Source: a virus
Taxonomy: Duplodnaviria; Heunggongvirae; Uroviricota; Caudoviricetes
Direction: 5' to 3' (one strand)
DNA length: 16,261 nucleotides
Virus record (IMG/VR): IMGVR_UViG_2547132421_000009
Shown: positions 4,635-12,117 of the stretch, piece by piece
Layout: every line of letters starts with the position of its first letter
Numbering within the stretch: position 1 is the first letter of the stretch
Translations under genes and position numbers: made by a program
Notes under the pieces: model-generated
The model's input: the letters and a program-made list of their open reading frames with translations, nothing else
Told to the model about the DNA's origin: nothing
Databases searched by the model: none

Positions 4635-5150
4635 ATGGCGTTAACACACCGCGAACTCTGTCAGATTGCGTACAAGTTCCTTAAGCGCAACGGGTTCAAG
4701 GTTTGTTTTCATGACCGCTTTATAGCTGTAACCAGTACCGGAGAACAGCCAGATGCTATGGGATTCAGAAATTCAGCATCATGCCTGATAGAGGCGAAGT
4801 GTTCTCGTGCTGACTTGTTGGCAGATAGAAAAAAGCGTTTTCGTAAAAATCCGTCTCTTGGAATGGGCGACTGGCGATTCTTTATTAGTGAGCCGGGAAT
4901 TATTTCAATTGAGGATTTACCACCTGGCTGGGGATTACTTCACGTTGTTAACGGAAGAGTACGGAAAGTACATGGGTGGCCCAAGGGTAATTGCTGTTGG
5001 GGTAATCCTGACGATAAGCCATTTACTGGAAATAAGCAGGTTGAATGCGATTACATGTTATCTGCATTAAGGCGCATGGAGTTGAGAGGGCACCTTAATG
5101 AAATATATGACGGTGTAATTGTTAATAAGAAAGAAGGAAACGCGGCATGA
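4635..5150 (+). CDS. putative PD-(D/E)xK-type nuclease-fold protein (171 aa)
   Basis: AAGGAG Shine-Dalgarno 7 nt upstream. Candidate catalytic motif ...GEQPD(39)AMGFRNSASCLIE(53)AK(55)... with spacing typical of restriction-endonuclease-like folds. Confidence 0.45.
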   Translation: MALTHRELCQIAYKFLKRNGFKVCFHDRFIAVTSTGEQPDAMGFRNSASCLIEAKCSRADLLADRKKRFRKNPSLGMGDWRFFISEPGIISIEDLPPGWGLLHVVNGRVRKVHGWPKGNCCWGNPDDKPFTGNKQVECDYMLSALRRMELRGHLNEIYDGVIVNKKEGNAA

Positions 5151-6028
5151 CCACTATTACCAAAGAGCGACTACTGACAATCAAGCAGTGGCGCGAAACA
5201 TACGGACCTGGTAGCAACGTTGTACTGCCAGCAGAAGAAGCGGAAGAACTGGCACGAATTGCTCTGGCATCACTGGAAGCAAAACCAATAGGTGCATTCC
5301 ACATTGCAGAACAGCAAGTTGACGGCACAAGTGACTACCTCAAGGATGGAGAATGGCCTATTGATAATGGAATTATTGAGGTCTACGCCGCTCCCCCCGT
5401 TCCAGTAGTACCGGAAGAAAAACCAATGCCTAACGCTCTAAGCATGCTTGAAAGAGAGATCACACAACTGATTGGTGATGCGCAGGAAGCCACTGTTACT
5501 GGCTATGAGTTAATCGCTGAAGCTTGGCGTTTGATGGATGGACAAGACCCTAAAACCAGCGATTGGCATAGCAAGGCTTCGAAGTATTTAAATTCCAATA
5601 TTGTAGAAAAAGTTGATGATGACCGTATTGATGCAATTAAGGCTGTTTTGCGTAGACTGGCTGGCAACTATCCGGATATTCCGGATAGTTCGGTGCCTAC
5701 GCCAGGAAAGGGCGTCACCGGTGAACGTATCCGCATTAAGCCGCATGTTTATCGCGAACTGGTTAACCGTCTCCACGATACAGCGATCAAGTGTGCTGGC
5801 ACCCAGCAATTACGAGAAAGAATTAGCCGTGTTTTGGGCGACGTTATTACGCCATATCATCATAAACAAGCCGAGAAAAGCGGTCTGGAAAGGTGTCATC
5901 TTGAGGCAGCATTAAACATTAAGCCGGGGCATACGCTTGGCATTATTGATGCACTGTTGGTTCATAAGATGGCCAGGGCTTTATTGTCGTTGGTGGACGC
6001 TGGTGATACAAGCGAGGGTGAAGTATGA
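5147..6028 (+). CDS. hypothetical protein (293 aa)
   Basis: Long ORF whose ATG overlaps the stop of the upstream gene (ATGA) and whose stop overlaps the next start; no family recognised. Confidence 0.6.
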   Translation: MTTITKERLLTIKQWRETYGPGSNVVLPAEEAEELARIALASLEAKPIGAFHIAEQQVDGTSDYLKDGEWPIDNGIIEVYAAPPVPVVPEEKPMPNALSMLEREITQLIGDAQEATVTGYELIAEAWRLMDGQDPKTSDWHSKASKYLNSNIVEKVDDDRIDAIKAVLRRLAGNYPDIPDSSVPTPGKGVTGERIRIKPHVYRELVNRLHDTAIKCAGTQQLRERISRVLGDVITPYHHKQAEKSGLERCHLEAALNIKPGHTLGIIDALLVHKMARALLSLVDAGDTSEGEV

Positions 6029-7445: not shown

Positions 7446-7802
7446 TTATGACCGTAAATTATTAGCGGATTTTAAGCCATATTCACCGTTGTAGAAATTA
7501 CTCATGTTCCATTCATTAGGAAGTTCTTTTCTGTCCAATGTATAGTGGCGCACGATATAACGATCTTCATCTTCTTCGATGGACAGGCGGACATAGCCAA
7601 TGTGAATCACCGATACGGGCGGTGTTCGTATTGCATAGATGTCGCGGAGATATACCGGCAGCTCGACAAATGCATCAGGTGCATCTGTGATGCTCGTTTT
7701 TTCACAGTATTCATATAACGCATCGTTGATATCGTTAAGAGATTCATGATCGTATATTTCCAGGTAATTACCGCGATCGCGATGGTACTCGATTTTAGCC
7801 AT
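7446..7802 (-). CDS. hypothetical protein (118 aa)
   Basis: Minus-strand ORF whose ATG (7802) directly abuts the stop of the upstream minus gene (7803-7805); no family recognised. Confidence 0.6.
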   Translation of the reverse strand: MAKIEYHRDRGNYLEIYDHESLNDINDALYEYCEKTSITDAPDAFVELPVYLRDIYAIRTPPVSVIHIGYVRLSIEEDEDRYIVRHYTLDRKELPNEWNMSNFYNGEYGLKSANNLRS

Positions 7803-8387
7803 TCAAAATCCCCTGTTATCGTTTTGCATTTCTCTAATCCGGTTCAGAACTACTTCGTGCTGGACTTGGATAGCGGCTTTTTCGTTTTCAAGCCGGGCAA
7901 TAGACATCTCTAATTCTTTGCTGTACCAGGCGAGCTGGGCCAGGTTCATCCGGTTGTGGTCGAGAGTTGGAGACACTTCGACGCGATCCCTTTCTTCCTG
8001 CTTTAATGAGAAGAGATTCATCTCATCCCTTGAGGAAAATTCAGCAACAATTTCTTGTTGATGATCCGGTCGCTGCGGCATCCTCGCCAGTATAAATGGC
8101 GGTTCTTTTGAAAACATGAATGTCGGTTCAGACCGTGTTTTTACCCAGCTTGCCTGCTGTCTTTCGGCAAGTTCACAGGCTTCATCATAGTTATCTGCCA
8201 AACAAAGCACGGATGGACGGTCCCACGCCCCACCATTCAGACAATAAACTACAATTTTCCCGTCAGGTTGTGTAACCCCATATGGATGGTCCCACTAGGC
8301 GTCCAGCTGAGCTTTAGAGCGTTTCTCGTTAGGAGTGCAGTCAAAATTTTTGGGCAATACAGGATCGAGAGGAATGCGATTAGGCAT
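7803..8387 (-). CDS. hypothetical protein with an in-frame TAG at 8297..8295 (194 codons if read through; 135 aa if started at GTG 8210 as in the ORF track)
   Basis: ATG at 8387..8385 with AAGGA Shine-Dalgarno 8 nt upstream. The 30 codons MPNRIPLDPVLPKNFDCTPNEKRSKAQLDA are followed by TAG in the same frame as WDHPYGVTQPDGKIVVYCLNGGAWDRPSVLCLADNYDE... and the track ORF. Lies divergent from humD, about 140 bp from the LexA box. Confidence 0.5.
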
Positions 8388-8525: not shown

Positions 8526-8541
8526 CTGTATAGATAAACAG
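8526..8541. promoter_or_regulatory. LexA (SOS) box CTGTATAGATAAACAG
   Basis: Exact CTGT-N8-ACAG with an AT-rich spacer, 21 bp upstream of the humD start codon and between the divergent humD and 8387 genes. Confidence 0.75.
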
Positions 8542-8561: not shown

Positions 8562-8951
8562 ATGGGTTTCCCTTCTCCTGCGGCGGATTATGTTGAAAGC
8601 CGAATTTCTCTTGATCAGCAGATAATTAGACATCCATCAGCAACCTACTTCATGCGGGCAGCTGATAGCCATCACCGTGAGGGAATATTGCAGGGTGCTT
8701 TGCTGGTGGTTGATTCTTCGCTTACTCCAGTTGATGGTTCGCTGCTTGTGTGCGCTATGGAGGGTGAATATCGCATAAAGAGATACCGAAAGTATCCGCG
8801 CCAGCACCTGGAGGATTTAAGCACCGGGAAGAAAGAGGCGTTACCAGTGGATGACGATGGATGCACGGGGAGTAATGCTGTGTTTGGTGTGATCACTCAT
8901 GTCATTAATGATGCCCGAAGTGGGGAATTTGATGATTGTCCGGTGATTTAA
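8562..8951 (+). CDS. humD: UmuD'-like SOS mutagenesis protein HumD (129 aa)
   Basis: UmuD/LexA C-terminal-like sequence (…LLVVDSSLTPVDGSLLVCAMEGEYRIKRY…); preceded by a LexA box; synteny humD-phd-doc as in phage P1. Confidence 0.85.
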   Translation: MGFPSPAADYVESRISLDQQIIRHPSATYFMRAADSHHREGILQGALLVVDSSLTPVDGSLLVCAMEGEYRIKRYRKYPRQHLEDLSTGKKEALPVDDDGCTGSNAVFGVITHVINDARSGEFDDCPVI

Positions 8952-10971: not shown

Positions 10972-12117
10972 ATGTTACTTAACTGGCAGGGACGCCACTT
11001 CATGGAAATAAATCACTCACGAATAACATCGTACGAGATTGCGGATTACATGATCCGCACTAAATCTCTTCTATCAGCGAAAGAACTCGCAGCAATTCTT
11101 GAAAAGGAATACCCGCATCTGGATGTCGATAAGCGCGATGTTTATCTGCGCTTAAAGGCTATCGCTGTGACCGATATCCGTGAATACCTGCTCGAACAGG
11201 GTCATCTGAATTACGCAACCGTCGCAGCCGAAGCACGCAAGGAGGCACACAGAATGAAAGCAACTAACGTTAAATCAGAAAAAATTCATGCAACTTCAGT
11301 TCAGGAATCAGAGCTGGTGGTTGTTCAGAATCAGTCTGATGAAATTCCCGTTCTGGAATGGCTGGGAGTGCGTGTAGTAACGACCGAAACTCTTGCTAAG
11401 GGGTATGGAACCGATGAAGCTAATATTCGTAAAAATTTGTCTCGCAACTCCGATCGCTTTGAAGAAGGTAAGCATTACTATCTCTTAACTGGTTCAAAAT
11501 TAAAGGAATTTAAAAGGCTGGTGACTACTAGTCACCTGGTTAGCAAATATACAAGCCAGGTAATTCTTTGGGCCGAACGCGGAGCGGCACGCATGTCTAA
11601 GATCGTAAACACAGATGAAGCATGGGCATTCTTTGAAAAACTGGAAGACAGCTACTTCCGGCAAAAAGAACAGCAACCGGTCGCAATCCCCCAAACACTA
11701 CCTGAAGCCTTGCGCCTGGCTGCCGAGCTGGCTGAACAAAAGCAGCTACTGGAACAGAAGGCCCACCAGCTAAATCAACAACTGGTGGCCGCAGCCCCCA
11801 AGGTCGATTTTGCCGACCGTGTATCAGTGGCTAAGGGGATCCTGATTGGTAATTTTGCAAAGGTTGTTGGGCTGAAGCAAAACGCGCTGTTTGCCTGGTT
11901 ACGGGAGAACGGCATTCTGATAGCGTCCGGCGGGCGTAAAAATGTGCCGTTCCAGCAGTACATAAACGCCGGATATTTCACAGTGAAAGAAGTGGTGCTG
12001 GATGATGAAGATGGCTACCAGATACGGCTGACGCCCCAATTAACGGGGAAAGGACAACAGTGGTTGACGCGTAAACTGCTCGATGCTGGCTTGTTAAAAC
12101 CGGTGGCGGCTGAATAA
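10972..12117 (+). CDS. antirepressor-like protein with ORF6N and KilA-C (ANT) domains (381 aa; start could instead be the ATG at 11002)
   Basis: Central region VRVVTTETLAKGYGTDEANIRKNLSRNSDRFEEGKHYYLLTG...LWAERGAARMSKIVNTDEAWAFFEKLEDSYF fits ORF6N; C-terminal region ...NFAKVVGLKQNALFAWLRENGILIASGGRKNVPFQQYINAGYFTVKEV fits KilA-C. Confidence 0.7.
   Translation: MLLNWQGRHFMEINHSRITSYEIADYMIRTKSLLSAKELAAILEKEYPHLDVDKRDVYLRLKAIAVTDIREYLLEQGHLNYATVAAEARKEAHRMKATNVKSEKIHATSVQESELVVVQNQSDEIPVLEWLGVRVVTTETLAKGYGTDEANIRKNLSRNSDRFEEGKHYYLLTGSKLKEFKRLVTTSHLVSKYTSQVILWAERGAARMSKIVNTDEAWAFFEKLEDSYFRQKEQQPVAIPQTLPEALRLAAELAEQKQLLEQKAHQLNQQLVAAAPKVDFADRVSVAKGILIGNFAKVVGLKQNALFAWLRENGILIASGGRKNVPFQQYINAGYFTVKEVVLDDEDGYQIRLTPQLTGKGQQWLTRKLLDAGLLKPVAAE

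Follow-up and report, generated by a model that had tools for sequence, protein, structure and literature searches.

The TAG at codon 31 of a minus-strand gene in the stretch of DNA analyzed here (16,261 nucleotides, called the window throughout) is best read as W31*, a natural loss-of-function amber allele of lxr/upf94.2, an accessory gene of P1/P7-like phage-plasmids. On comparative sequence data, we give this reading a probability of roughly 0.88. Translation from the native ATG at 8387 would end after 30 residues, and because the conserved N-terminal domain of the protein spans the TAG, no functional Lxr is likely to be made. The gene is a dispensable accessory gene that is often broken in nature, and the spread of W31* through P7-type elements may reflect that an element living as a plasmid can do without lxr. 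W31* is an undescribed yet database-abundant nonsense allele of a familiar kind; the allele itself is biologically ordinary, and the more useful part is its population pattern.

An amber codon interrupts the lxr/upf94.2 reading frame

Translation of window positions 7803 to 8387 on the minus strand yields 30 sense codons (MPNRIPLDPVLPKNFDCTPNEKRSKAQLDA) from the ATG at 8387, followed by TAG at 8297-8295 and then, with the frame unchanged, by 163 sense codons up to the stop at 7805-7803. The ATG is preceded by a Shine-Dalgarno sequence, AAGGA, located 8 to 12 nt upstream. The start with its Shine-Dalgarno sequence, the 30 codons, and the in-frame TAG are as described in the first-pass annotation, as is the continuation of the frame, although the 164 codons counted there consist of 163 sense codons plus the final stop. 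The program-made list of open reading frames (ORFs) contains only two fragments of this frame, one of 30 amino acids (8295-8387) and one of 135 amino acids that runs from GTG 8210 to 7803 (Table 1). The latter lacks residues 1 to 59, that is, most of the conserved core of the protein, and inspection of the window sequence revealed no convincing Shine-Dalgarno sequence before GTG 8210. Rather than a gene, this ORF most likely represents a by-product of the split.

Table 1. Features of the lxr/upf94.2 locus and its surroundings in the window
Feature	Position	Strand	Remark
upf93.6 homologue, 118 aa	7446..7802	-	ATG 7802 directly abuts the lxr stop
Rest of the lxr/upf94.2 frame, codons 32-194 plus stop 7805-7803	7803..8294	-	Predicted to be untranslated from the native start
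135-codon ORF from GTG 8210	7803..8210	-	PGAP "hypothetical protein" WP_001354543.1 in TAG-allele plasmids
Direct repeat copy 2, sense GTGGGACCGTCCAT	8213..8226		Encodes W55-D56-R57-P58
Direct repeat copy 1, sense GTGGGACCATCCAT	8282..8295		Encodes W32-D33-H34-P35; starts at the G of TAG
Amber TAG, lxr/upf94.2 codon 31	8295..8297	-	Ancestral TGG (Trp31) in P7, P1, and MH422554
Former Dcm site	8295..8299		Sense CCTAG in the window, CCTGG in all TGG alleles
Mutated base	8296		G>A on the sense strand, C>T on the + strand
lxr/upf94.2 N-terminal remnant, 30 codons, ATG 8387	8298..8387	-	From frame translation; sole part expected to be translated from the native start
LexA box CTGTATAGATAAACAG, lxr-humD intergenic	8526..8541		LexA site annotated in P7 and P1
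humD (UmuD'-like, S24 peptidase), intact, divergent from lxr	8562..8951	+	0/51 loci disrupted
381-aa ORF between pdcB and c1	10972..12117		First 60-70 Lpa residues fused to ORF6N and KilAC antirepressor domains

Since the upf93.6 start codon directly abuts the lxr stop, the two genes probably form one transcription unit, in which polarity from the upstream amber codon is possible: about 490 nt of untranslated lxr message may lower the expression of upf93.6, which has its own Shine-Dalgarno sequence (GGGGA). The humD gene lies on the opposite strand and would be expected to be unaffected by the amber codon.

The window locus is 98% identical to phage P7 and, over the shared part, 95% identical to phage P1; the 585 nt of the interrupted frame are 99.5% identical to P7 upf94.2 and 94.5% identical to P1 lxr. 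The P7 annotation treats these 585 nt as a single CDS, upf94.2 (AAQ07574, 194 aa), whose orthologue in P1 is lxr (AAQ14072, 190 aa, "LexA regulated function"). A comparison with orthologues, as proposed in the first-pass annotation, returned a sense codon at the amber position: P7, P1, and MH422554 each have one ORF of 190 to 194 codons with TGG at codon 31, and in a four-way DNA alignment a single base near the site distinguishes the window from P7. The window gene otherwise shares its start codon and Shine-Dalgarno sequence with P7 upf94.2 and P1 lxr, and its stop codon with P7 upf94.2. As in the P7 and P1 records, it is divergent from humD across an intergenic LexA box, with phd-doc beyond; MH422554 is arranged likewise, with no LexA site annotated there. 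P7 Upf94.2 matches phrog_6164 across residues 1 to 194 (E = 3.5e-135), and the window gene is homologous to this Lxr/Upf94.2 family (PHROG 6164) over its full length. In contrast to P7 upf94.2 and P1 lxr, however, its 190- to 194-codon frame is interrupted by TAG in place of TGG at codon 31. The window gene is a disrupted allele (pseudogene) of the Lxr/Upf94.2 family, not an intact member.

The TAG allele is present in dozens of independent records

We queried sequence collections with a 41-mer centered on the mutated base, with each 28-nt megablast seed forced to include 8296. Among PLSDB plasmids, 30 carried TAG (17 from Escherichia, 11 from Salmonella, and 2 from Shigella) versus 138 with TGG; among 5,426 complete E. 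coli genomes, the corresponding numbers were 24 and 170. An exact 39-mer scan located TAG in three IMG/VR contigs, and the exact 135-aa downstream ORF was present on 310 contigs of a global protein collection, versus 105 for the commonest full-length member among the matches listed. The TAG 39-mer had no match in an exact-pattern scan of genome_contigs, a collection that holds one genome per species and is little informative on this point. Among gene-carrying records, the TAG allele has a frequency of about 12 to 18%, with the stop being absent from about 82 to 88%.

Sequencing error can be excluded as the source of the TAG, given that the identical base occurs in dozens of independent records. 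Apart from the general prior that single-base errors exist, nothing speaks for a sequencing or assembly error in the window record, and the chance of one is negligible in view of the 30 PLSDB plasmids, 24 E. coli genomes, 3 IMG/VR contigs, and 310 contigs with the downstream ORF; the TAG records span different hosts, countries, and sequencing projects. The earlier view that a substitution-type stop is unlikely to be an artifact has thus held up.

In TAG records, PGAP annotates just the downstream ORF, as "hypothetical protein." Hundreds of records hold such a 135-aa entry (WP_001354543.1, WP_223656859.1), which corresponds to the tail of a broken lxr and deserves flagging as a pseudogene piece. 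Fragments of other broken lxr alleles have also seeded separate PHROG families, 17145 and 10721.

lxr decays behind the stop and is repeatedly broken by other lesions

Compared to the P7-type consensus, the TAG lineages have gathered seven further changes, of which none is synonymous, six are missense, and one is nonsense, numbers that are small. Five plasmids from E. coli, Salmonella, and Shigella (haplotype group B below) carry V38I, E131K, and W55*, a second stop created by TGG>TGA; one further TAG copy (L031) has S24F and P104S, and another (L029) has V60M, which turns GTG 8210 into ATG. These changes, second stop included, show a relaxed constraint in the TAG lineages. Intact lxr alleles have a dN/dS of 0.17 to 0.33 in 27 of 28 pairwise comparisons.

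Independent knockouts of lxr were found elsewhere. Three are nonsense mutations, namely, E72* and E112* (both GAA>TAA) and E137*, and the others are a 1-nt deletion that shifts the frame at nt 449, an insertion at about nt 535, and a truncation at nt 228. As with W31*, the product is truncated and the neighboring genes are intact; unlike W31*, these lesions lie at other positions and are GAA>TAA transversions, an indel, or an insertion, with no Dcm-site transition among them. E112* was present in 16 complete E. coli genomes, for example, on the 97.9-kb plasmid NC_013370.1 of E. coli O111:H- 11128, whereas a 41-mer for E72* had no match in the complete E. coli genomes. Among assessable IMG/VR loci, lxr was disrupted in 15 of 53, by at least seven different lesions, while at the same loci humD was disrupted in 0 of 51, phd and doc each in 0 of 47, pdcB in 1 of 46, and upf93.6 in 1 of 33. 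Counted per codon, seven of the nine disruption events fall in lxr (binomial P = 2.7e-4).

Thus, lxr is knocked out repeatedly in P1-like plasmids despite long-term purifying selection, and humD, phd, and doc stay intact. The knockout pattern marks lxr as conditionally dispensable, and a CRISPRi screen of P1 found the gene to be nonessential (PMC10695390). Plasmids with TGG and plasmids with TAG offer a natural-variation handle on an SOS-linked gene.

The conserved domain of Lxr spans the stop

A homology search returned 124 relatives. W31 is invariant in an alignment of 24 homologues that reaches Pseudomonas and Bradyrhizobium, and it is at least 90% conserved among 97 sequences. The conserved core comprises residues 1 to 110 (the N-terminal 110 to 130 residues), with 50 to 65% identity among relatives; in Salmonella, Klebsiella, Pseudomonas, Bradyrhizobium, Burkholderia, and Xanthomonas, it occurs by itself, as a protein of about 133 aa. 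Out of 33 invariant family positions, 25 fall in residues 1 to 59, and many of them in residues 1 to 30. An AlphaFold2 model (mean pLDDT 88) features a compact alpha/beta domain at residues 25 to 130 and a C-terminal helix at residues 149 to 192.

The homologues of about 133 aa, which are found on plasmids and phage-plasmids, share with Lxr the N-terminal domain and its W31-W32-D33-x-P35 and W55-D56-R57 motifs, but they are devoid of the C-terminal coiled-coil extension, and none of the eight loci inspected had a LexA box upstream. "DNA-binding protein," the name under which these homologues appear, is NCBI's label only. In Pseudomonas plasmids the homologue gene overlaps the start of a serine resolvase gene, and in Klebsiella phage-plasmids it lies beside a HEPN-Toprim gene; these neighborhoods of distant homologues provided no consistent functional clue. 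Lxr itself had no Pfam or NCBIfam family match and no sequence match in the PDB, and a Foldseek search with its model returned nothing at an E value of 0.001 or below in the PDB or BFVD.

Read-through, split genes, and a functional downstream product

The first-pass annotation had left four options for the TAG: a nonsense allele, a pseudogene, a suppression-dependent gene, or two separate small genes. Support from the TGG in the orthologues, the later decay, and the independent knockouts goes to the first two. The two-gene option, which supposes an independent start near 8210 and an upstream part of 30 codons that is not conserved, does not fit: residues 1 to 30 hold many invariant positions, and since the conserved unit spans the TAG, these are not two genes. 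Suppression-dependent expression is contradicted by the TGA of W55* and by the solely nonsynonymous later changes. In its general form, this idea holds that the UAG is read through or suppressed, by a suppressor tRNA of the host or of the element or by a leaky context, so that a regulated low level of full-length Lxr is made. The remaining frame is indeed intact in the window. However, the stop is far from conserved among orthologues (TGG in 138 plus 170 records versus TAG in 30 plus 24) and absent from every distant homologue; no tRNA gene, suppressor or otherwise, was detected by ARAGORN within the 16.3-kb window; and the seven changes in TAG lineages, few as they are, include no synonymous one that would point to purifying selection downstream of the stop. 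Moreover, the TAG is followed by T, which makes an efficient terminator context in E. coli, and the TGA at codon 55 in one TAG lineage is unreadable by an amber suppressor. Taken together, these data render a dependence on read-through or suppression very improbable, although the UAG may be read through at a low natural level and translation may re-initiate at GTG 8210.

A further question is whether the 135-aa product from GTG 8210, that is, residues 60 to 194 with the C-terminal coiled coil, is functional in its own right. Codons 60 to 194 are open in all 11 distinct TAG copies (window counted), both group B stops, at codons 31 and 55, precede codon 60, the ORF is called by the annotation pipeline, and the change of GTG 8210 to ATG in L029 could hint at its use. 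Yet an open frame of 135 codons is expected anyway soon after the mutation, and the missense changes P104S and E131K have gathered in this part with no synonymous change. The product would be devoid of residues 1 to 59, and hence of 25 out of 33 invariant positions and of strands 1 and 2 of the five predicted for the domain, and it would have to be translated with no good Shine-Dalgarno sequence upstream of its GTG. Finally, E72*, E112*, E137*, and the frameshift at nt 449 destroy that very part in other elements. We consider a functional downstream product improbable, and the loss-of-function reading of W31* remains the one preferred here.

Mutational origin and spread of W31*

At the site of the stop, every TGG allele reads GCC TGG and therefore contains CCTGG, a Dcm site. 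Dcm methylates the internal cytosine of CCWGG on both strands, and the T:G mismatch that results from deamination of 5-methylcytosine is normally repaired by Vsr-dependent very-short-patch repair (PMC2715241). On the plus strand, the window has CTAGG in place of CCAGG, that is, a C>T change at position 8296, exactly at the internal C, as expected of a Dcm-site transition. From the sequence context, which supports this route well, we infer that W31* arose by deamination of 5-methylcytosine at this site: a deaminated base in CCAGG would have escaped very-short-patch repair, turning TGG into TAG. In an alignment of 39 sequences over the 2.2-kb region from doc to upf93.6, C>T or G>A variants were found at 4 of 14 Dcm targets versus 76 of 1,015 other C/G positions (Fisher P = 0.019); without the focal site, the enrichment is 3 of 13 and marginal (P = 0.07).

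The amber hotspots of lacI in E. coli are classical sites of 5-methylcytosine deamination at Dcm (CCWGG) sequences. Like these, the lxr mutation is a C>T change at the internal cytosine of a Dcm site that yields an amber codon, which makes it a plausible natural example of a mutation known from Dcm methylation. The two differ in strand, since a lacI hotspot mutation turns a sense-strand CAG into TAG, whereas in lxr the affected cytosine is on the antisense strand and TGG becomes TAG. They differ also in that W31* is restricted to one local haplotype, which argues for few origins. All TAG records have the P7-type local 41-mer, and in complete E. coli genomes TAG is found in 24 of 69 exact P7-type haplotypes versus 0 of 125 others.

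On a larger scale, TAG occurs on at least three flanking haplotypes, and all four combinations of TAG or TGG with the upstream haplotypes exist, in violation of the four-gamete rule. Group A comprises the window and four other copies (L026, L007, L068, and L029); group B consists of the five E. coli, Salmonella, and Shigella plasmids with W55*, which share 99.45% identity with the window over 2.2 kb and 98.5% over 5.5 kb; and group C consists of L031, whose upstream region is of the P7/SJ46 type. The P1-like elements that carry lxr are, as judged from the identities of group B, clearly mosaic. The restriction of TAG to the P7-type local haplotype favors few origins of W31* followed by spread through descent and recombination. 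Both the haplotype table and the pairwise comparisons indicate that the P7-type gene is nearly monomorphic around the site, and for this reason recombination and recurrence of W31* are not separable.

Is the loss of lxr adaptive?

It is tempting to speculate that the repeated, gene-specific inactivation of lxr reflects selection against the gene in P1-like elements that live as plasmids. In this scenario, the knockout of lxr would be positively selected and W31* would be a convergent "domestication" mutation, not neutral decay, for example, if SOS-induced Lxr were costly or favored the lytic cycle. Several observations agree with it. At least seven independent lesions fall in the 194 codons of lxr versus 2 in 796 neighboring codons, and intact alleles are under purifying selection (dN/dS of about 0.2), so that lxr is not simply junk. 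TAG accounts for approximately one third of the P7-type alleles, and the 135-aa ORF outnumbers the commonest full-length member among the matches listed by 310 contigs to 105. In addition, the element in the window is without intact lpa and pacAB.

However, relaxed selection on a conditionally useful gene, together with hitchhiking on successful plasmids, predicts the same pattern, and many plasmids of about 90 to 100 kb retain an intact lxr. The genes used as controls, namely, a toxin-antitoxin pair and humD, are under unusually strong constraint; since these neighbors (humD, phd, and doc) are strongly selected, the excess of lesions in lxr shows dispensability rather than a benefit of loss. 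Positive selection for the knockout is therefore a doubtful, though conceivable, alternative to neutral decay. Its most far-reaching version seems unlikely to us: lxr would be a recurrent target of adaptive inactivation as P1-like phages settle as plasmids, its widely conserved N-terminal domain would represent an uncharacterized family of mobile-element proteins, its SOS-induced activity would be costly or prolytic, and W31* would be the commonest convergent domestication mutation.

With regard to the element itself, homology to lpa ends at about 11169 within the 381-aa ORF located between pdcB and c1, and that locus therefore lacks pacA-pacB as well as the 3' part of lpa. The identical lpa junction is present in the IMG/VR contig 2778261693_000004. 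Two plasmids of 61 to 77 kb, NZ_CP135674.1 and pMRE162, match the window at 99.4 to 99.9%, and in pMRE162 the annotation between pdcB and c1 includes neither lpa nor pacA or pacB. It looks as though the amber allele of the window sits in an element that was already defective as a phage; the TAG allele is also found in plasmids of about 90 to 100 kb with lpa annotated.

A repeated protein motif and the LexA box

The short repeat noted earlier near the stop exists as two direct copies of 14 nt that are identical at 13 of 14 positions and lie 69 nt apart from start to start. Its coordinates had been given about 2 nt off, and the copies do not flank the stop, both being located 3' of the TAG in the sense of the gene. 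No family member in the 24-sequence alignment deviates at W32, D33, P35, W55, D56, or R57; the repeat in the DNA is therefore a reflection of a repeated protein motif.

The anatomy of the upstream region is as proposed, with humD divergent from lxr and a LexA box shared between them. The box fits the consensus CTGT-N8-ACAG; the ATG of humD (8562) is 21 nt away, and that of lxr is 139 nt away. A link of lxr to this putative operator agrees with the P1 annotation of the gene as "LexA regulated function." A consensus promoter scan of the intergenic region detected no promoter for lxr. By reading of the sequence only, a candidate promoter, TTTACC-N18-TATACA, overlaps the LexA box.

Independent inactivation of lxr in P1-like elements

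Besides the amber codon W31* of the TAG allele, other lesions have knocked out lxr (upf94.2 in P7) independently in further P1-like elements (see the table), and no disruption of humD, phd, or doc was found in the loci with lxr knockouts. One of these alleles, E112*, is also carried by 16 complete Escherichia coli genomes, including that of O111:H- strain 11128.

Coordinates of lxr lesions and neighboring features
Feature	Position	Strand	Locus or remark
lxr stop (E112*, GAA>TAA)	codon 112		L037, L039-L044
lxr stop	codon 72		L027, L030
lxr stop plus insertion	codon 137; insertion near nt 535		L055
lxr 1-nt deletion plus same insertion as L055	nt 449; insertion near nt 535		L057
End of lxr homology	nt 228		L062
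Standalone 135-aa homologue of Lxr N-terminal domain	5001-5408		Pseudomonas plasmids L069-L072
upf93.6 homologue, 118 aa	window 7446-7802	-	PHROG 5797 (no known function)
381-aa ORF, Lpa N terminus fused to antirepressor domains	window 10972-12117	+	junction near 11169

Pieces of broken lxr alleles have entered public resources as separate protein families or nonredundant "hypothetical proteins." The family phrog_17145 (111 aa) matches residues 1 to 111 and phrog_10721 (71 aa) residues 123 to 193 of intact Lxr/Upf94.2, a pair that fits a split by E112*, and the RefSeq entries WP_001354543.1 and WP_223656859.1 are the tail (135 aa) of the W31* allele.

Further change within the TAG-allele lineages

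A second in-frame stop, W55* (TGG>TGA, equivalent to window position 8223), is present in a TAG-allele sublineage of E. coli, Salmonella, and Shigella plasmids (NZ_AP025206.2, NZ_OM179752.1, NZ_CP055065.1, CP148777.1, and NZ_CP123268.1; L063-L067), where it is accompanied by V38I and E131K. The three changes show that decay of lxr went on after the amber mutation. In another TAG allele (L029, IMGVR_UViG_2778261693_000004), the GTG start codon of the downstream 135-codon ORF, equivalent to window position 8210, has become ATG, which is V60M in the original lxr frame. Such a change would be expected if the start of this ORF were being improved; alternatively, it may have arisen by chance.

Genomic surroundings of lxr and its homologues

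In the window, the upf93.6 homologue begins immediately after the lxr stop codon. The lxr-distal side is a variable region, since upf93.6 is missing from P1, which instead carries hot, encoded on the other strand, just past lxr; this side also holds IS903 in P7, and some plasmids have ISVsa5 there. On the Pseudomonas plasmids, the Lxr-domain homologue appears to form a three-gene unit with a 66- to 67-aa ORF and a serine resolvase gene; the resolvase start overlaps the stop of the homologue. The unit is adjoined by RepA_C and a VbhA/Fic toxin-antitoxin pair. It is conceivable that the homologue is tied to multimer resolution or site-specific recombination.

A fused lpa gene and missing pac genes

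In the 381-aa ORF of the window, the N-terminal 60 to 70 residues of Lpa, the late-promoter activator (positions 1 to 60 of the 131 in profile PF25716), are followed without a frame break by antirepressor domains of the ORF6N and ANT/KilAC types. This locus lacks the 3' portion of lpa as well as pacA-pacB, the terminase genes found between pdcB and c1 in P1, so that late transcription and packaging are probably defective in the element. The annotation of pMRE162 lists no lpa or pac genes at the corresponding place; the 61- to 77-kb plasmids pMRE162 and NZ_CP135674.1 match the window at 99.4 to 99.9%. The same lpa-antirepressor junction is carried by IMG/VR contig 2778261693_000004.
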